From: a phage
Strand: one strand, 5' to 3'
Length of the DNA stretch: 64,000 bases
Sequence record: PZ445439.1
Each line of letters starts with the position of its first letter. The stretch's first letter is position 1. The notes below the pieces were generated by a model. It was not told the DNA's origin and made no database searches. It worked only from the letters and a program-made list of their open reading frames with translations. Positions 4,203-52,714 of this stretch are shown piece by piece. Position numbers and translations under genes: made by a program.

Positions 4203-4421
4203 TTATTTCTCTAATATAAAATAAAAATCATCATCTGTTAAATGATACCGATAGTTTAATTCTACACCATTAGATTTAAAAGCGGTATCATACGGATTTT
4301 CTGGATCAATATCAATGTCAAGAGCTAAAACTTCCCTGAGATACATTTTAAGTAAATAGGGAATAGCTTCAACTTCAGGTATTTCTTCCAAGAATCCGGA
4401 GAGGTTAATCGTTAGCCTCAT
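4203..4421 (-). CDS. hypothetical small acidic protein
   Basis: 72 aa ORF; overlaps gene 55 stop region. Confidence 0.45.
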
Positions 4422-4962
4422 ATAAAAAATCCAAACTAGGAGAATCGTCTACAACACTTTTCTTTTCAGCCCCCGGTGTTCTATAGGTTGATTCTTCGTA
4501 ATGCGTCATTTTATCGTAGATGTCTTGAATAAAAGTTTCATCTACTAACGCAACCATATCGTCGTCACGACTGTCATAGACATTGTGAACGAAGTAACTA
4601 TATTTCTTTGCAACTTCCTTACGTTCTTTTTTAATACGTTGGACGAATGCATTAAAACAAGCTTGAGTTATATACGCATGTGGGTTTTTATATTTCGTTT
4701 CATCAAAATTGTGAAGCCCCTTAATAGAAGCTTCTATACCATCTGCAATCATTTCTTGTTTCCAAGACTGGGTGTATCCTGAAAAGTTGAAACGTTTAGA
4801 TAAGCCTTCTGCAATAAGCATAATGGCTAATCCGATAGTATCATTCTGACGAACTACTTTATTTGGGTCTTTATTATTTGCTAATTCTGTTTTCCAATCA
4901 ATAATAGCTTGTAAAAGCTCTTTATTGTTTACGTAATTATATTTAGGCTTAGTTTCTGACAT
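4405..4962 (-). CDS. 55: late-transcription sigma factor gp55
   Basis: 185 aa from ATG at 4962 ([20 protein letters not shown]...), same length as T4 gp55. Confidence 0.85.
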
Positions 4963-5040
4963 TTTCACCTCTTAGCTCAATTCATAGATCTATTATATCA
5001 TAATATTTGAAGATCTATCTTAAAGCATAGAGAATATCAG

Positions 5041-5310
5041 TTATCTAAGTAAACAGTATGCTTGGAATACTTTCTCCATCATCTTTTTAAATTCATGAAT
5101 ATCTATATAATGACTAGTTAGATCAGCATGATATAAAAAGTCTAAAAACTTTTCATGTGTACTAACATATTCACTTTCATTTAATTCAGAAACATGGCTT
5201 TCCCAATATCCAACACCAGTCTTATTTGGGAAAAATGAAATTTTCATGTATTGGTCAACATAGAAAATGCCATAATTTTCAATAGTAATAGAAATATTAA
5301 TAAATTTCAT
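5041..5310 (-). CDS. hypothetical small protein
   Basis: 89 aa ORF in early orientation. Confidence 0.4.
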   Translation of the reverse strand: MKFINISITIENYGIFYVDQYMKISFFPNKTGVGYWESHVSELNESEYVSTHEKFLDFLYHADLTSHYIDIHEFKKMMEKVFQAYCLLR

Positions 5311-29297: not shown

Positions 29298-29876
29298 TTA
29301 ATTACCACGGGCTGCATTAGCAACGGCGTAAGCGTACTGAACATTAGCGTCCTTAAACGTACCTTTAGAGGTATCTATTTCTGCCTTAAAGCCGCCTTTA
29401 GCCATAACATCGGCAAATTCTTTACGGAAAGCCATTGCATCAAGACCTTTCCATGATGATTTGTGCTTGGCGAATTCAAGACCAGCGTAGTTGACAGCCT
29501 TAGCTAATTTATTATCAATGACCCATTTACCGGCTTTAGGCACAAACTTCGGGCCTTTTTGTTTAGAGAACAGTTTTAAATTCCAGCGACGAAGATCACT
29601 GTCGGCTTTAACAAAAGCTGCGTCTAAGTTACTAGCAACAACATCTTCAATATGAGCAAATTTAAGTCCGTCAACTTCAATATTTAAATCGGTACGCCAG
29701 CGAAGTCCTTCCCAAGCGAAAGCTTTAAAATCGGAAGCTTTTGTAGCTAAGTATCGTTCAAGTGGAGCAGTTTTAGGGTCAAAGCCGTTTCCACCACGAT
29801 AGTTCCACTCGTCCTTATTAATGCCTTTGGCCTTTACTACAGAAGCTTCAGCAATAAATTCTTGATACGTTTTCAT
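29298..29876 (-). CDS. capsid internal protein with N-terminal capsid-targeting sequence (IPIII-like)
   Basis: N-terminus MKTYQEFIAE followed by basic Lys/Ala-rich body; 192 aa. Confidence 0.7.
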   Translation of the reverse strand: MKTYQEFIAEASVVKAKGINKDEWNYRGGNGFDPKTAPLERYLATKASDFKAFAWEGLRWRTDLNIEVDGLKFAHIEDVVASNLDAAFVKADSDLRRWNLKLFSKQKGPKFVPKAGKWVIDNKLAKAVNYAGLEFAKHKSSWKGLDAMAFRKEFADVMAKGGFKAEIDTSKGTFKDANVQYAYAVANAARGN

Positions 29877-29901: not shown

Positions 29902-30216
29902 TTATTCTTTAGGGAAGTTTTTAGAGTATGCATCATAAAGTTTATTACCGATGCGACGGAAGACTTTAGCTGCAAAACGGTTTTCAGGGTTTTTAATCAT
30001 GATTTGCATCATGTAAGTTCCTGCATCCGAAAGAGCTTCTTCATAGTACCCATTAATTTCTTTAAGAGTCCTACGTTTACCGCCAGGACCGTCAACAGTA
30101 ATTTTCCATTTACCTGTAGAAGTGCGGCTCGGTGGCTCAACTTGTTCAATCCAAATATAACCACCTTCAACGCGTTGGTTGGCGGATTCTGCAATAAATT
30201 CTTGATACGTTTTCAT
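29902..30216 (-). CDS. capsid internal protein (CTS-bearing)
   Basis: N-terminus MKTYQEFIAE; 104 aa; own early promoter. Confidence 0.65.
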   Translation of the reverse strand: MKTYQEFIAESANQRVEGGYIWIEQVEPPSRTSTGKWKITVDGPGGKRRTLKEINGYYEEALSDAGTYMMQIMIKNPENRFAAKVFRRIGNKLYDAYSKNFPKE

Positions 30217-30279: not shown

Positions 30280-30540
30280 TTAAGCTTTACCACCAGAAAT
30301 AATTCCGAAGTTGTTAAAATCATATCCAATATCGTCAACATCTACTTTAGGGCTTGCTACAACATAAGCAATTTCACTACGTTTTGCATAGGTGTTTATT
30401 TCTCTACCATCGCCGCCTAGGAAAGAATACCCATTACGTTTTAATGAGCCAAAATCTTCGGCATCACCAACGAAAGCTTTAACTTTAAATTTGGGGCCTT
30501 TGGCATCTGCTTCAGCGATAAATTCTTGATACATTTTCAT
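30280..30540 (-). CDS. capsid internal protein (CTS-bearing), 86 aa
   Basis: N-terminus MKMYQEFIAE. Confidence 0.65.
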   Translation of the reverse strand: MKMYQEFIAEADAKGPKFKVKAFVGDAEDFGSLKRNGYSFLGGDGREINTYAKRSEIAYVVASPKVDVDDIGYDFNNFGIISGGKA

Positions 30541-31018: not shown

Positions 31019-31821
<803 letters not shown>

Positions 31822-34098: not shown

Positions 34099-34692
34099 TC
34101 ATTTCAGAGAATTAATGTATTCCTGAACATCGGCAGAGGTAGTTTCAACCCCGGAAATATTACCATTAAAGGTTTCAACTCGAGCAAGGGTATCTTCAAT
34201 ATCAACCTTAGTCAGCGCTGCAATTTCAACTACATCATCGGCAGTACTAATTCCAAGGGCATTTGCTGCACGAGTTTCACGGATATATTCCAATTTAACT
34301 GCAAGTTCTTGGCGAGCATCATCTAACTCAACTACTTTCTTGGCGATTTCAATTCGCATTTCAGCATAACCGTCAGCCTTAGTAGTCAACTGCTCAGCTG
34401 TTCGACGATATAGTAAACCGAGTTTAGCATGCATTGTTACATCTTGACCTTCAGAAAGAAGCTTGCGAATTTCACGCTCTTTTGATTCGGCCTGCTTATT
34501 CTTTTCGACAATAAGTTCACGAATACGTTTTTCTTCATTAATAGATTTAACAGAAGCAGTTTTTAGGTCTTTAATTTTATCAAGTAGTTTTGCTGCTGCA
34601 GCAGTATACTGTTCTTCAACAGATAAATTTTTAGCCATAGCAGAACCAAGTTTAGTGCGAATAAACTCAACAATTTTCTTCAGTGTGTTCAT
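34099..34692 (-). CDS. long coiled-coil protein, PspA/IM30-like
   Basis: 197 aa almost entirely heptad-type helix; pattern resembles PspA family (low certainty). Confidence 0.4.
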
Positions 34693-34735
34693 AGTATTTC
34701 CTTAGGTTAATTAAGATTTAAAATCCATGAGAGTA

Positions 34736-34912
34736 TTATACTCCGGATAGTTTGTAAACTATTTTAACATCGCCTTTTGCTGCTTTATAACCTTCAGCCC
34801 AAGATATAACAGAGTTTTTATCTGAAGATTCAAATTCTGGCATTGGGCTTTCGCCAATGTTCACACAATATGTTTCTTCATTTTCGTCGAACCAAATAAT
34901 TAAAGTAGTCAT
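34736..34912 (-). CDS. hypothetical small protein (below ORF-track cut-off)
   Basis: 58 codons MTTLIIWFDENEETYCVNIGESPMPEF...; GGAGAAAT RBS. Confidence 0.35.
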   Translation of the reverse strand: MTTLIIWFDENEETYCVNIGESPMPEFESSDKNSVISWAEGYKAAKGDVKIVYKLSGV

Positions 34913-34980
34913 TTATTTCTCCGTTTCTATATTTGTTTTGATAAGTCTATAATAACACCGTCCTTGGTGTTTGTACACAA

Positions 34981-35256
34981 TTATTTCATATTATTGAAAT
35001 ATTCTTCTGCGATTTCGTCGTTATCATGGTAAACTTTAGAAGACAGTTTAACATAACCTTCAGCAGCGAACATGTTAATCACAACCTTTACAGTATACCA
35101 CTGACCGTCTTCATTACCCATTACTGCATAGGTTTCAAACATCGGATGGTCAGGACCGATAACTTTAATATCATTCACCGTACGACCAAAATCTTCTGAA
35201 ACACATTTCATAAAGAAGTTGAACAGTTCACCGTAATTATCCATTTCGTTCTCCAA
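34981..35256 (-). CDS. hypothetical acidic protein
   Basis: 91 aa; early promoter and GGAGAA RBS upstream. Confidence 0.5.
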   Translation of the reverse strand: MENEMDNYGELFNFFMKCVSEDFGRTVNDIKVIGPDHPMFETYAVMGNEDGQWYTVKVVINMFAAEGYVKLSSKVYHDNDEIAEEYFNNMK

Positions 35257-35273
35257 GTTGTTTTCTGTATCAG

Positions 35274-35296
35274 TAGTTGATAGTTGTATAGTACCA
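35274..35296 (-). repeat. 23-bp promoter-associated repeat (copy 3)
   Basis: identical to 17692..17714 and 19131..19153. Confidence 0.8.
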
Positions 35297-35317
35297 TGGA
35301 AGAACAGGGATGTAAAC
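35286..35317 (-). promoter_or_regulatory. T4 early-type promoter with UP element
   Basis: minus strand TTTTTTCACAAAACTGTTTACA...TACTATAC. Confidence 0.55.
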
Positions 35318-35440
35318 AGTTTTGTGAAAAAATTTTTAAAAAGTTTTGGGGAATTCTAGGGCAGGGAGAGGCAATTAAAGGATAGGATAATATATTATAA
35401 AGGGTAGAAACTAAATGATGCCTAGAGAGGCCCGGAAAGG

Positions 35441-35471
35441 CTTAGATACCAAAAAGCCCCAACCTTTCGGC
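35441..35471 (-). repeat. 31-bp direct repeat containing terminator hairpin (copy A)
   Basis: aaaaagccccaacctttcggctgaggctaag; 30/31 identical to 36006..36036. Confidence 0.85.
35445..35468 (-). terminator. rho-independent terminator (stem AGCCUCA/UGGGGCU, GAAA-type loop, U5)
   Basis: hairpin followed by TTTTT on minus strand, 3' of CTS protein gene. Confidence 0.6.
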
Positions 35472-35485
35472 TGAGGCTAAGAATG

Positions 35486-35959
35486 TTATTTGATTTGTTT
35501 AGCAGACCAAATGCGGTCTTTAATAATTTTTTGGATGTCTTCAACATACTCAAGAGAGTGAACATGCGGGTTATCTTTGAAACTATAAGCACGAGCTAAC
35601 TTTTGGCCTTCAGTTTTGATTACTAAAAGCTCTTTAAGGATAGCTTCATATTTGGAGATAATTCCTTTAACAATATTTTTCTCTTGTGCTACTTTAGGAT
35701 CTGCTTTAGGAGCAGGTTTACCTGAAGCCTTTGCAAAAGCAGCTCCAGTAGCAACTAAACTTTTCCAAGCCATACTAACTGCATTTCCCGTAAATCCTTC
35801 TGCTTTCATATCGCGAGCAAATTGGAATCGCGATTCATCAGAAGCATCTTTATAGGAATATTTACCCGCGGCAATGGCAGCTTTTGCGACAGCTTGAATT
35901 TCAGTGCTAGATGCTTCATTTAACACCGCTTCATTTAAAAATTGAGCATATGATTTCAT
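35486..35959 (-). CDS. capsid-targeted internal protein-like protein (CTS-bearing), 157 aa
   Basis: N-terminus MKSYAQFLNE-AVLNE resembling MKTYQEFIAE CTS; late promoter upstream; flanked by terminator repeats. Confidence 0.6.
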   Translation of the reverse strand: MKSYAQFLNEAVLNEASSTEIQAVAKAAIAAGKYSYKDASDESRFQFARDMKAEGFTGNAVSMAWKSLVATGAAFAKASGKPAPKADPKVAQEKNIVKGIISKYEAILKELLVIKTEGQKLARAYSFKDNPHVHSLEYVEDIQKIIKDRIWSAKQIK

Positions 35960-35995
35960 CTTATTTCCTGTTTTAATTCGTGGTTTTAATATACT

Positions 35996-36003
35996 TATTT
36001 ATA
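35996..36003 (-). promoter_or_regulatory. late promoter TATAAATA
   Basis: minus strand GTATAAATAAG about 35 nt upstream of 35959 start. Confidence 0.45.
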
Positions 36004-36005
36004 CT

Positions 36006-36036
36006 AAAAAGCCCCAACCTTTCGGCTGGGGCTAAG
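36006..36036 (-). repeat. 31-bp direct repeat containing terminator hairpin (copy B)
   Basis: aaaaagccccaacctttcggctggggctaag. Confidence 0.85.
36010..36033 (-). terminator. rho-independent terminator of tRNA/stable-RNA operon
   Basis: perfect 7-bp stem AGCCCCA/UGGGGCU + inner CC/GG, followed by TTTTT. Confidence 0.65.
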
Positions 36037-36039
36037 CCT

Positions 36040-36349
36040 TGCGGCAACCTTGTCGGGGTTCCACCTGCTAAGGCAAGTGTTTGTACGAAACGCCGGGATT
36101 CGAACCCGGTTACCAAGCAGTTGACGCTACTCAATATTTTTAAAAGGCCATATCTCGACCATATCCGAACGTTCCGTCAAAAACGCTACTCGGCTTATGG
36201 CAAAGATATTTCCTCGAATCGATAATTCGGTGCGCCGTTTCTGCTGTGATATAAGGGGACATTAACAGATCGTAAAGATTTGTTAATGTCAGTCCTTAAA
36301 CAGGGAACATCAGTCCGACGACTTACCGGTAGCGACCCGGCTTCTTGTC
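36040..36349 (-). ncRNA. stable small RNA region (T4 species 1/2, rnaC/rnaD-like) with tRNA-like T-arm
   Basis: no ORF; canonical T-arm CCGGG-TTCGAAT-CCCGG and paired ends between tRNA-Arg and terminator; boundaries approximate. Confidence 0.45.
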
Positions 36350-36426
<77 letters not shown>

Positions 36427-36429
36427 TAG

Positions 36430-37095
36430 TTAAAATTTCATTTTTCGACCTTTAAACCATCCTTCTGGAATTGGGTCAGTTTTCTTAATACGTTTAGAAA
36501 CTTTTTCATCTAATGAATGAATCCACATCATACCAAATTGGGAATTCTTTTCACCTTTTTGGTGATTATTTTTAGCATGAATTTCTTTCATTTTATTAAT
36601 AGTTTCAGGAGTATGGGTCTTACCCAAGAAAGATTTAGTATTTAAAAATTTCTCTCTATACTTAGGATTATCCCAAAGCTGTTTAAACCTTTCTGAACCC
36701 ATTTTACGATATTTTTCTTTAAGGTCTGGGTCGTTCTCAAATCTGGTTTTAAAAGCAGCAGCCCCTTTTAAGGAAGCTTCTTTCTTTTTATCCAAATATT
36801 CTTTAGTGTTTAAATGGTCCCAACCACCTTCACCACCTAATTTCAAATTATAAACATCAGGGCGCTTTAAAAACTCTTCAGTCAAAATATTCTTTTCTGA
36901 CTCAAACATAGAGGTTTTATCGTCAAAGAACTCTAATATTTCTTTAGAGAAATTTTCTATACCATACTTGTCTTGGGCTCTTTTTAATAATTTACCAGAA
37001 CCCATATATCCATCATCTAAATTTTCGGTAGAATGAGCGCCTATATAGATTTTATTATTAATTTTATTTGTTATTTTATAAGTGTAATGGAACAT
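36430..37095 (-). CDS. segB: GIY-YIG homing endonuclease SegB
   Basis: 221 aa; YTYKITNKINNKIYIGAHS GIY-YIG module; located inside tRNA cluster as in T4. Confidence 0.8.
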   Translation of the reverse strand: MFHYTYKITNKINNKIYIGAHSTENLDDGYMGSGKLLKRAQDKYGIENFSKEILEFFDDKTSMFESEKNILTEEFLKRPDVYNLKLGGEGGWDHLNTKEYLDKKKEASLKGAAAFKTRFENDPDLKEKYRKMGSERFKQLWDNPKYREKFLNTKSFLGKTHTPETINKMKEIHAKNNHQKGEKNSQFGMMWIHSLDEKVSKRIKKTDPIPEGWFKGRKMKF

Positions 37096-37136
37096 AAATA
37101 TCTCCTATTTCTAAGAGTATTTATGTTCCCAAAATA

Positions 37137-37208
37137 TGGCCCTGGGTGGAATTGAACCACCATCTGGCGATTATGAGTCGCTTGCTTGAACCTTCCAGCT
37201 ACAGGGCC
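37137..37208 (-). tRNA. tRNA-Ile (anticodon CAU, lysidine-type)
   Basis: acceptor GGCCCTG/CAGGGCC, anticodon loop CTCATAA, T-loop GGTTCAATTCC. Confidence 0.75.
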
Positions 37209-37209
37209 T

Positions 37210-37285
37210 TGGTGCTGATTGACGGAATCGAACCGCCGACCTTCTCATTACAAGTGAGTTGCTCTACCTACTGAGCTAAATCAGC
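37210..37285 (-). tRNA. tRNA-Thr (anticodon UGU), CCA encoded
   Basis: acceptor GCTGATT/AATCAGC, D-arm TAGCTCAGTAGGTAGAGC, anticodon loop CTTGTAA, T-loop GGTTCGATTCC. Confidence 0.85.
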
Positions 37286-37292
37286 GAAATTA

Positions 37293-37379
37293 CGGAGGCG
37301 ATAGGATTTGAACCTATGAGTCGCCGGAGCGACTGCCGGTTTTCAAGACCGGTGCATTAAACCACTCTGCCACGCCTCC
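37293..37379 (-). tRNA. tRNA-Ser (anticodon UGA), long variable arm
   Basis: acceptor GGAGGCG/CGCCTCC, anticodon stem CCGGT/ACCGG loop CTTGAAA, T-loop GGTTCAAATCC. Confidence 0.85.
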
Positions 37380-37381
37380 AG

Positions 37382-37455
37382 TCTCCGTGGCAGGATTTGA
37401 ACCTACGACATTCTGCTCCCAAAGCAGACGCTCTACCAAACTGAGCTACACGGAG
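37382..37455 (-). tRNA. tRNA-Pro (anticodon UGG)
   Basis: acceptor CTCCGTG/CACGGAG, D-arm TAGCTCAGTTTGGTAGAGC, anticodon loop TTTGGGA, T-loop GGTTCAAATCC. Confidence 0.85.
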
Positions 37456-37467
37456 TAAATTAAATTT

Positions 37468-37539
<72 letters not shown>

Positions 37540-37545
37540 AAACTT

Positions 37546-37632
37546 TGGTACGAGAAGTGGGACTCGAACCCACAAGGAAATCATTCCGCAGCATTTTAAG
37601 TGCTGTGCCTTTACCAATTTGACCATTCTCGC
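37546..37632 (-). tRNA. tRNA-Leu (anticodon UAA), long variable arm, CCA encoded
   Basis: acceptor GCGAGAA/TTCTCGT, anticodon stem CAGCA/TGCTG loop CTTAAAA, T-loop GGTTCGAGTCC. Confidence 0.85.
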
Positions 37633-37633
37633 G

Positions 37634-37706
37634 CTGGGAATAAAGGACTCGAACCTTTGCATCTAGCAGTCAAAGTGCTATGCCTTACCAACTTGGCTAA
37701 TTCCCA
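37634..37706 (-). tRNA. tRNA-Gln (anticodon UUG)
   Basis: acceptor TGGGAAT/ATTCCCA, D-arm TAGCCAAGTTGGTAAGGC, anticodon stem TAGCA/TGCTA loop CTTTGAC, T-loop GGTTCGAGTCC. Confidence 0.85.
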
Positions 37707-37792
37707 ATTATTAACAAAGGCTCTCAAACAAGAACCCTTGATGATAGAGGGTATTAATCAGTGCGGTATGAGTTAATAATAACAAATAATTC

Positions 37793-38308
37793 TTAAAGCA
37801 AATTAAACATTTTAACGGTCGGCAAAACAATTTCTTTTTCTATATAAGAGTATTTAACACTCTCAACTACACGCAAAAAATCATAATCATAATACTCAGA
37901 AGCACTGCCTAAAATATTAATAAGTCCTTCAAGCACTTTATTACCATTCACAAAGAATAAGTCAAATACACGTTCTTCGTCTTCTTCGGATTTATTACCA
38001 AGGTCAACTTCTATGTCAAAGACCTTTTTAATGAATTCTGGATAAAGTTGTTCTGAGAACAGTCCTTCAACCAAGTATTCATAAATAAAAAGCGATTGCT
38101 CGCTGAACAAGCCATTACCACAATAACGTTCAGCTTTAGTACTAGAATGTCTACTTTTAAACTTCTTTAAAAGATATTGAAATTGTAAGATTTCATGCTC
38201 TTCTACGCCAAACAGTGTTTTAGTTTTATAGTTGTCACCATCATTTTCCCAGGTAGTGACATCAATTACGTAACCCTGTGGAATTGTAGTACCTAAACAA
38301 ATATTCAT
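37793..38308 (-). CDS. hypothetical acidic protein
   Basis: 171 aa ORF upstream of tRNA cluster. Confidence 0.45.
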   Translation of the reverse strand: MNICLGTTIPQGYVIDVTTWENDGDNYKTKTLFGVEEHEILQFQYLLKKFKSRHSSTKAERYCGNGLFSEQSLFIYEYLVEGLFSEQLYPEFIKKVFDIEVDLGNKSEEDEERVFDLFFVNGNKVLEGLINILGSASEYYDYDFLRVVESVKYSYIEKEIVLPTVKMFNLL

Positions 38309-38604
38309 TTGCTCACCATATTAATGTAAGTATATTCAATACATTCAAGACCCAAAGGATTCTTGAAAATATCATATTCAAGAGGACCTTTTTCCGTTTC
38401 AATAAAGAAATCAAAATTTACTGTATTAAATTTACGGTCTTCCTTCACTAATTTAACCTGAGAAGATGAACGGTCAATGTAAACCTTTTCAACTTCAAAA
38501 CATGTTAAAATGCCATAATCATCAATCAAGGCTTTAGCTGCTTCTTGATCATATTTATATCCATTTTCAATGGATGATACTTTAGCATAAAGAATCATTA
38601 TCAC
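38305..38604 (-). CDS. hypothetical protein
   Basis: 99 aa; its first 26 nt are duplicated at 39013..39038. Confidence 0.45.
   Translation of the reverse strand: MIMILYAKVSSIENGYKYDQEAAKALIDDYGILTCFEVEKVYIDRSSSQVKLVKEDRKFNTVNFDFFIETEKGPLEYDIFKNPLGLECIEYTYINMVSK
38576..38601 (-). repeat. 26-bp direct repeat (copy 1, gene start)
   Basis: tactttagcataaagaatcattatca identical at 39013..39038. Confidence 0.85.
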
Positions 38605-39055: not shown

Positions 39056-39466
39056 TCAGCCTCTATCAACGATAGCATGAGTATGGGCATTTACGATTTG
39101 CCACCAGTCGAAACGATTGGAACCATAATCTGGTTTATTTTCATTTTCTTTAATGATATCACGCAATTTATCTTCTGTTTCAGCATACGCAATTAAATCA
39201 TCATATCCACCACAAGGATAATAATTATCACCTGCGAATAAAAGAAAATTTACCTTAGATGGATTTACGTAATAATGGTCTTTAGGATATTTAGTTCCTC
39301 TCCAATCAGTTACTTCAACATAACGGTAAGAAAATCCATTTTTACTTTCAATCCAACTCCACGCTTCAAAAGGAGTATTAAAAACTTTATCAGGTATTAA
39401 ATTACCTTCAAAATGAGAAGGATTTGCATAATCCCCGGCATAAACATAATATTCGTTAATACTCAT
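39056..39466 (-). CDS. hypothetical protein (Tyr/Trp-rich)
   Basis: 136 aa ORF. Confidence 0.45.
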   Translation of the reverse strand: MSINEYYVYAGDYANPSHFEGNLIPDKVFNTPFEAWSWIESKNGFSYRYVEVTDWRGTKYPKDHYYVNPSKVNFLLFAGDNYYPCGGYDDLIAYAETEDKLRDIIKENENKPDYGSNRFDWWQIVNAHTHAIVDRG

Positions 39467-39710: not shown

Positions 39711-39944
39711 TCATTTTTTACGAAAAATTGATTTATTTTCTGCTGCCCATTTTTCAATAACTGCAGCCGGACCAGTAACAACAATTTTATCACCGTAATC
39801 TTCTGCGGCGAGTTGACCGAAATCATCTAATGCATCACGAAGAACTCCATGAGGCATTTCACCCATTTTATCTTTCTTGCCAGTGTAAATAAACTCAACT
39901 TTTACATCAGCAGTTTCAGCAATAAATTCTTGATACGTTTTCAT
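39711..39944 (-). CDS. capsid internal protein (CTS-bearing; ipI position)
   Basis: MKTYQEFIAE N-terminus from ATG at 39944 with GGAGAAC RBS; adjacent to 57B. Confidence 0.6.
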   Translation of the reverse strand: MKTYQEFIAETADVKVEFIYTGKKDKMGEMPHGVLRDALDDFGQLAAEDYGDKIVVTGPAAVIEKWAAENKSIFRKK

Positions 39945-52656: not shown

Positions 52657-52679
52657 GGGAGCCCATGGGCTCCCTTTTT
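52657..52679 (+). terminator. rho-independent terminator after gene 8
   Basis: hairpin GGGAGCCCATGGGCTCCC followed by TTTTT. Confidence 0.6.
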
Positions 52680-52680
52680 C

Positions 52681-52688
52681 TTTATAAA
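52681..52688 (+). promoter_or_regulatory. late promoter TATAAATA for gene 9
   Basis: exact TATAAATA 27 nt upstream of gp9 ATG. Confidence 0.6.
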
Positions 52689-52714
52689 TACTATAAACTC
52701 ATAAGGAAACCGCT

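Follow-up and report, generated by a model that had tools for sequence, protein, structure and literature searches.

Why do many relatives of phage T4 carry a small gene at a point where T4 itself has a single terminator hairpin, and what might the encoded protein do? We addressed this question in a 64,000-nucleotide stretch of phage DNA (sequence record PZ445439.1, hereafter the window), in which an open reading frame (ORF) that we call gene A (35486-35959, minus strand) lies between two near-identical hairpins. The gene content of the window, all on the minus strand, is that of a T4-like phage (Tequatrovirus), with eight tRNA genes, a GIY-YIG endonuclease gene, and homologues of e, denV, ipIII, e.6 and e.8. 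Alignment with T4 places A and its flanking signals (the cassette or unit) between the end of the tRNA/rnaD/rnaC operon and e.8. We consider it fairly probable that the interval is a one-gene, late unit of the internal-protein type, held between duplicated terminators, which is ancestral in the Tevenvirinae and has been lost in T4. Such a transcription unit would run from the tRNA/rnaD/rnaC terminator to the early promoter of e.8: the upstream hairpin would end the stable-RNA transcript, late RNA polymerase would start at the motif TATAAATA that follows it, and the downstream hairpin would terminate the unit, insulating the e.8 early unit.

The duplicated hairpin and the late-promoter motif

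A first-pass annotation, made from the letters of the window without database searches, described a 31-bp direct repeat around A, each copy being a hairpin followed by a U-run on the transcribed strand. The repeat is real, with 30 of 31 positions identical between 35451-35481 and 36006-36036, although the first copy had been placed 10 nt away, at 35441-35471. At its full length it comprises 36 nt (35446-35481 and 36001-36036; 34 of 36 positions identical; spacing 555 bp), and the identity is not limited to the stem but includes unpaired bases on either side of it (CTTAG... and ...GTAT). None of 100 shuffles contained any match to the 31-mer. Read on the minus strand, both copies have the 10-bp stem with 6-7 G-C pairs, the GAAA loop, and the UUUUU tail expected of intrinsic terminators, the U-runs lying at 35450-35454 and 36005-36009. 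The stem of the upstream copy lies at 36010-36033 (AGCCCCAGCC-GAAA-GGTTGGGGCT, then UUUUU) and that of the downstream copy, which begins 4 nt past the stop codon of A, at 35455-35478 (AGCCUCAGCC-GAAA-GGUUGGGGCU, then UUUUU). The centroid or minimum free energies of the two hairpins are -17.6 and -25.2 kcal/mol, with z-scores of -3.5 and -4.4.

Only 51 nt separate the upstream copy from the 3' end of the rnaC homologue (window 36084, mapped from T4), and we therefore take it to end the tRNA/rnaD/rnaC unit, as had been proposed for the distal copy. On the strength of these sequence features, it is probably the intrinsic terminator of that unit, and the downstream hairpin is probably the terminator of A. 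T4 has a single hairpin downstream of rnaC, to which the upstream copy is orthologous; in the window this hairpin is present twice, with a gene between the copies. The terminator of the T4 tRNA/species 1-2 RNA operon was reportedly described by Broida and Abelson in 1985. When a 28-nt core of the repeat was searched for with up to five substitutions, no third copy was seen in the 64-kb window and none in positions 1-50 kb of T4; at the same tolerance, the sole core copy in the 66-76 kb region of T4 is that at the empty site. This search covers about 124 kb in all rather than a complete genome. Within that scope the repeat is confined to the cassette locus and so is not a generic terminator found throughout the genome.

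The ORF and the late-promoter motif reported in the first-pass annotation are both present as described. The motif TATAAATA, which is the T4 late-promoter consensus, lies at 35996-36003 (minus strand), 2 nt after the U-run of the upstream hairpin and with its first 3 nt within the repeat, so that hairpin, U-run, and TATAAATA fit within 45 nt. It occupies the -10 position without a -35 element, and no -35/-10 pair of the early type was called between 35960 and 36040. A Shine-Dalgarno-like AGGAAA, read from the sequence, is found at 35964-35969 (minus strand), 4 nt before the ATG. Importantly, TATAAATA lies 2-3 nt past the U-run in seven of nine lineages, even though the spacer between hairpin and ATG varies. 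It is this conserved position across nine lineages, and not the frequency of the motif, that provides the evidence for a late promoter; the count of TATAAATA in the window was rejected as evidence because it equals chance, and positional conservation alone was used. Late transcription of A is likely on these grounds. Elsewhere in the window, at approximately 52657-52690 on the plus strand, a perfect GC-rich hairpin (GGGAGCCCATGGGCTCCC) is followed by a T-run, TATAAATA, and then a Shine-Dalgarno sequence and ATG. The layout of a terminator followed by a late promoter therefore recurs in the window, with a hairpin of unrelated sequence.

The empty site, its alleles, and the age of the unit

T4 has one hairpin and no gene at the site of the cassette. 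Positions 4361-4850 of the T4 locus correspond to window 34981-35470 (96.3% identity) and positions 4853-5092 to window 36028-36267 (94.2% identity), and the gap of ~555 bp relative to T4 starts and ends inside the repeat, the collapse to one copy being exact and without a scar. This is the structure expected of recombination between the two copies or of cassette entry at a single copy, and it bears out the earlier description of a discrete module bounded by terminator hairpins. To survey other configurations, a phage collection in which roughly 730 records carry the flanks was searched with the T4 junction; 60 matches spread evenly down the ranking were considered, 36 of which covered at least 93% of the query. 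Configurations were classed by span, with SA20RB, Shfl2, KarlGJung, OE5505, and ECML-134 checked by sequence. The site is empty (~400 bp) in five of the 36, namely two T4 records, RB3, ACG-C40, and W143. A span of ~955-960 bp, seen in 20, corresponds to A only, as read in the window and SA20RB, while five genomes have a span of ~1087-1094 bp, which in Shfl2 holds a second gene, B, in place of A. A further five have spans of ~1634-1644 bp, in which A is followed by B (read in KarlGJung, OE5505, and ECML-134), and one span is odd. The presence of A thus varies among close relatives (empty, A, B, or A and B), as is characteristic of internal-protein genes, and the first-pass expectation that the unit would be present in some relatives and absent from others, rather than the same gene with the same flanks occurring in all, was borne out.

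Gene B encodes 187 amino acids (aa) and starts MKTYAEFLTE. BLASTP detects similarity between A and B in the leader only, and both are placed in phrog_2280. Homology of A and B is not claimed here, since their likeness is limited to the leader and membership of a common PHROG may reflect leader and composition. A third allele, C (126 aa, starting MYTVNEFLAE), has the same hairpin and promoter ahead of it on one viral contig, which was among only five loci obtained from IMG/VR, a number too small for statistics. At a coverage of at least 80%, 467 phage records match A and 165 match B; KarlGJung/Bas37 carries both.

When the junctions at all hairpin copies are tabulated, the context on the left is one of two (the rnaC side or the end of ORF A) and that on the right one of three (TATAAATA with A, the beginning of cassette B, or the e.8 side). 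The combinations in which they occur are as expected if recombination takes place at the hairpin. The hairpin is missing from just one junction, that at the 3' end of B; here B has a different terminator of its own yet exhibits the same GGCTTTTTGGTATCT junction. We are therefore confident that the unit has been inserted or deleted by way of the hairpin. The 36-nt repeats would provide the homology through which phage recombination brings about precise loss, gain, and stacking of cassettes; T4-type recombination needs less than 50 bp of homology (PMC2839356). Recombination between the repeats would excise the unit precisely and leave one hairpin behind, and the hairpin would also act as the joint for cassette B. 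In addition, the stems carry lineage-specific variants that are common to both copies (C[GA][AG]CC in Tequatrovirus, CTTCC in Mosigvirus), and the variants CAGCC and CGACC are each found at either copy position in different genomes. Such lineage-matched stems fit concerted evolution, by gene conversion or repeated exchange between the copies, with selection for terminator function contributing too.

It is improbable, in our judgement, that the hairpins are two independent, look-alike terminators and that the presence or absence of the gene results from illegitimate recombination or from segB-type homing co-conversion. A gene for a 221-aa GIY-YIG homing endonuclease does occupy the segB position (36430-37095, minus strand), at a distance of ~470 bp from the cassette; going by its title, a paper cited in PMC4122927 attributes preferential inheritance of the T4 tRNA region to SegB; and the downstream terminator of a Jiaodavirus relative is unrelated to its upstream one. 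Independent origins, however, would not lead one to expect identity that extends beyond the stem, an exact and scarless one-copy T4 site, junctions at the hairpin in every examined configuration that contains it, or lineage-specific stem changes common to both copies. Homing-linked co-conversion of flanking DNA could spread or erase A and B cassettes in mixed infections.

With respect to the direction of change, the first-pass annotation had read the module as gained. In Mosigvirus AV118, the order is tRNA-Arg, rnaD-/rnaC-like sequence, hairpin, AATAAATA, an A homologue, a second, related hairpin, and an early promoter. In Jiaodavirus KEN39, three tRNAs and ~200 nt of non-coding sequence precede a hairpin (GGGGCTTTTTAGTATAAATA) and a 177-aa A homologue, which is followed by the unrelated terminator mentioned above. 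In both genera, then, the A homologue comes immediately after the tRNA/stable-RNA terminator and a TATAAATA-type motif. Synonymous divergence (dS) between A alleles is 0.19-0.45 within Tequatrovirus and ~1.3-2 in comparisons with Mosigvirus. Given the same-site homologues in two further genera and these large dS values (0.2-2 overall), the unit is old, and the minority of empty genomes is best explained by loss. Hence, the proposal of a gain is not supported: T4 very probably lost the unit rather than the window lineage having acquired it, and deletion between the repeats is the better explanation of the empty site in T4, RB3, ACG-C40, and W143.

A recent gain, in which the cassette entered a T4-like empty site through recombination of the terminator with the hairpin of a small circle or of a co-infecting phage, so that presence would be the derived state, seems quite unlikely to us. 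The process is reversible in principle, with cassette circles documented for promoter/stem-loop (PeSL) elements (PMC2839356); the occurrence of CAGCC and CGACC stems at both positions across genomes shows that exchange is continuing, and B has apparently been added beside A in some genomes. Set against this are the A homologues at the same site in Mosigvirus and Jiaodavirus, the deep divergence among A alleles (dS up to ~2), and the excess of A-bearing genomes (25 of the 36 sampled) over the five empty ones. The single hairpin of W143, moreover, has an AAAA loop that is otherwise seen only in downstream copies (SA20RB and the viral contig L009), and W143 has a 12-nt deletion that is not present in other empty-site genomes. 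These features hint at more than one, independent deletion event.

The leader-bearing protein and its putative packaging

The 157-aa product of A starts MKSYAQFLNEAVLNE and belongs to PHROG 2280, a family of unknown function. Its capsid-targeting-like leader (aa 1-15; nt 35915-35959, minus strand) reads MKSYAQFLNE-AVLNE, in which L-N-E ends at residues 10 and 15, giving two sites of the (L/I)-x-E form expected for the prohead protease. This doubling is encoded by two exact 11-nt copies, 15 nt apart (35913-35938, minus strand), which specify LNEAV-LNEAS and hence two candidate protease sites; alleles of A with a single-site leader are also present in the alignment. Comparison of MKSYAQFLNE with MKTYQEFIAE, the type sequence of T-even internal-protein leaders, gives five exact matches in ten positions plus two conservative changes. 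The earlier suggestion of a capsid-targeting peptide is thus supported by the two L-x-E sites and by family-wide conservation, and the body is Ala/Lys-rich as first noted: mature A would contain 16.9% Ala and 14.1% Lys, with an isoelectric point (pI) of 9.6, close to that of the IPIII homologue in the window (pI 9.65). A six-frame scan of the window for the leader motif returned six ORFs of at least 77 aa, these being A and five in the two classical internal-protein loci (29298-29876, 29902-30216, 30280-30540, 31019-31300, and 39711-39944, all on the minus strand, with the motif MK[TM]Y.EF[IL].E). Four of these five belong to PHROG families annotated as internal head or virion proteins. The first 19 residues of A and of the 93-aa internal head protein encoded at 31019-31300 include 11 identical and 18 similar positions, the doubled L-x-E among them.

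Profile searching of 1.84 billion representative proteins identified 13 relatives of A, apparently all from T4-like phages, and no cellular homologue. In every full-length member of the family, including those whose bodies are less than 45% identical, the leader follows M-x-x-[FY]-x-x-F-[LV]-x-E or a close variant of it, which argues that the leader is under selection. The ratio of nonsynonymous to synonymous divergence (dN/dS) between Tequatrovirus and Mosigvirus alleles of A is 0.04-0.10, indicative of strong purifying selection and hence of a functional protein. Domain searches were uninformative, in agreement with the first-pass description: for A, Pfam gave only sub-threshold noise and thus no domain, NCBIfam gave nothing for A and only a far sub-threshold TraA match for B, and a sequence search of the PDB with A gave nothing significant. 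All database copies of A that we examined are labelled hypothetical. In an AlphaFold2 model, A is all-helical: three helices make up the N-terminal domain, which is followed by a Pro/Lys linker and then by a long helical hairpin.

Packaging of A as an internal protein is, on balance, the more probable outcome. The leader would carry the basic, helical protein into the prohead core, as for the known T-even internal proteins, and the prohead protease would then trim it after Glu10 or Glu15 to give an N-terminus at Ala11 (AVLNEASSTEIQAVAK) or Ala16 (ASSTEIQAVAK); the trimmed protein would probably be injected with the DNA. If so, the site would be a third internal-protein-type locus, unrecognised in current annotation. 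It is unlikely, though not negligibly so, that A is instead an ordinary late protein of the cytoplasm, acting for example in head or DNA maturation, with a leader left over from recombination among internal-protein genes. Such a role would suit the finding that A lies outside the two canonical internal-protein loci, which are treated as the only ones (PMC2839356, PMC12373910), as well as its conservation, which is unlike that of hypervariable internal proteins, and the fact that no virion data on A were found. The leader, however, is the most conserved feature shared by the otherwise unrelated A and B and is retained under selection where bodies of the family have diverged below 45% identity. 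Moreover, the L-x-E sites fall exactly where the known leader is cleaved, and a lone late promoter fits a prohead component.

What A might do after injection is the weakest step of our proposal. Each of Ip1, Ip2, and Ip3 blocks a distinct GmrSD type IV restriction enzyme, and no inhibitor is known for several of the active variants of GmrSD (PMC12373910). By analogy, anti-defence is the likeliest role for A, and we offer it tentatively. The broader idea would be that A, B, and C (157, 187, and 126 aa) constitute a third T-even internal-protein locus whose products are late, packaged, injected, and able to neutralise host defences that lack a matched inhibitor, such as the partnerless GmrSD variants (PMC12373910), with the duplicated terminator as the joint for gain, loss, and stacking; taken as a whole, this idea is speculative. 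A or B may also be one of the proteins already named Ip4-Ip10. The Ip4-Ip10 genes, however, have been assigned to the two classical loci, and the supplement text of PMC12373910 contains neither A nor B.

Several observations weigh against interpreting the cassette as an old, late-expressed, internal-protein-type unit. The motif TATAAATA occurs 11 times in the window compared with 10.45 expected, which is not above chance, and two of the nine lineages have AATAAATA in its place. At the other two loci in the window, early promoters of the GTTTAC...TATAAT-like type, and not a lone late promoter, lie ahead of the leader-bearing genes. Loss in T4 is a direction that rests on parsimony across three genera rather than on a dated phylogeny. 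A is 95-99% identical in most Tequatrovirus records, which is unusual conservation for a protein engaged in an arms race. The structural model, built from eight sequences, is of moderate confidence (predicted local distance difference test score, 76.7; predicted template modelling score, 0.47), and a Foldseek search with it gave no match in the PDB at E <1 and only its own family in BFVD, so that no particular target is supported. No transcript, term-seq, or virion proteomics data for A-carrying phages were found in the literature, where we likewise found no mention of the relevant accessions or of phrog_2280, and no virion proteome covering a member of the family. Finally, frameshifts interrupt A as well as B in OE5505 (514-1076 and 1202-1853 of its locus). 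Several database clusters similarly consist of truncated A variants (P0006-P0009), with P0006 and P0009 breaking at a run of A's in ...CAAGAAAAAAATATC.... The frameshifted copies may be either pseudogenes, consistent with dispensability, or homopolymer sequencing errors.

Related systems and other features of the locus

The shuffling of promoter/stem-loop-bounded genes in T4-type phages has already been described (PMC2839356, PMC4122927); what is new here is the site, the flank composed of a terminator and a late promoter, and the unannotated gene, and no new mechanism is involved. As related in later papers (PMC2839356, PMC3012670, PMC12373910), Repoila et al. (1994) reported internal-protein genes that share a leader, two polymorphic loci, and promoter/stem-loop flanking homologies. 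Only two internal-protein loci are described in the literature consulted, one next to ipI and the other in the denV-e interval (PMC2839356, PMC12373910). In so far as these accounts describe them, the T-even internal proteins (IPI-III and Ip4-Ip10) resemble A in being encoded by small, non-essential, variably present genes, in having an approximately 10-residue, MKTYQEFIAE-type leader that ends in (L/I)-x-E on unrelated bodies, and in their promoter/stem-loop flanks. A differs in lying at a third site, from the rnaC terminator to e.8, outside the classical loci, and its flanks combine a strong, GC-rich intrinsic terminator with a late promoter, whereas theirs combine an early promoter with a weak, AT-rich stem-loop. 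A is also hypothetical in annotation and much more conserved, and its packaging is putative.

Arbiol et al. (2010; PMC2839356) and Comeau et al. (2014; PMC4122927) generalised these homologies to PeSL elements, in which recombination between promoter/stem-loops excises or inserts ORF cassettes and releases excised circles. The cassette is similar in that a terminator/promoter composite flanks a single ORF with its own transcription signals, a relative has one motif and no ORF, and the breakpoints fall within the motif. The promoter here, however, is of the late type (TATAAATA), unlike the early, sigma-70-like promoters of PeSL elements, and the repeat is confined to one locus (two copies in the window), whereas PeSL elements are dispersed in hyperplastic regions and have documented small circles. 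A lambdoid moron (discussed in PMC2839356) is likewise one accessory gene that brings its own promoter and terminator and is inserted between two conserved transcription units. Morons, however, lack flanking homologous repeats, and their origin is attributed to illegitimate recombination, whereas in the present case the flanks would themselves be the recombination substrate.

The A family is absent from T4 itself, which may explain why classical T4 genetics missed it, and its presence in several hundred sequenced relatives makes its members concrete candidates for injected anti-defence proteins. The locus also represents a clean natural case in which a duplicated intrinsic terminator would supply the homology for precise gene gain and loss, and it would extend the idea of promoter/stem-loop shuffling to a late-promoter cassette. 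For annotation purposes, we suggest that A be labelled a putative internal head protein and that spurious coding sequence (CDS) calls over rnaC, rnaD, and the hairpin be removed. Short hypothetical CDSs in several GenBank records run over the hairpin, the late promoter, and rnaC/rnaD (2576-2877 in locus L002 and 282-569 in locus L015), and the window ORFs 35973-36134 and 35980-36225 overlap the same non-coding stretch. Such calls are almost certainly spurious, lying over non-coding RNA. At the Rfam gathering threshold, the interval 34500-38500 yields the eight tRNAs only, with no family for rnaC, rnaD, or the hairpin.

Upstream of the cassette, the homologues of rnaC (~36084-36222) and rnaD (~36229-36348), both mapped from T4 by alignment, are preceded by tRNA-Arg (36350-36426), all on the minus strand. 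The downstream flank, common to the window and T4, contains an early-promoter-like site for e.8 (35288-35316) and the e.8 homologue itself (34981-35244), also on the minus strand. Window 36269-36366, comprising the 5' part of rnaD and tRNA-Arg, aligns poorly with T4 (5093-5219 of the T4 locus), at 75-91% identity with gaps. Since rnaC and its flanks are 94-96% identical to T4, this patch of higher divergence is local, and it adjoins the endonuclease gene. The tRNA at 37137-37208 (minus strand) is called tRNA-Met by ARAGORN (CAT anticodon) and occupies the position of a T4 gene annotated as tRNA-Ile; rather than a Met tRNA, it is probably an Ile tRNA that reads AUA and carries a modified C34.

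At the classical internal-protein loci, the order of genes in the window is e, the 93-aa internal-protein gene, denV, two internal-protein genes, and ipIII, which differs from the T4 order of e, ipIII, ipII, and denV. The stop codon of e is overlapped by the start of the 93-aa internal-protein gene. A conserved early-promoter block (GTTTAC...TATAAT-like...ctatcaaaacaaa) precedes the genes at 29902-30216 and 39711-39944, and it recurs on the downstream side of the second of these; it is probably the flanking homology reported in 1994. Lastly, the database protein P0014 (94 aa) is a chimera, resembling the trna.3-like ORF (window 39056-39466) in its N-terminal part and ending in 32 residues that are the C-terminus of A. 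Such a protein implies that an assembled genome has lost ~3.5 kb, comprising all of the tRNA cluster, segB, rnaC, rnaD, and the greater part of A.

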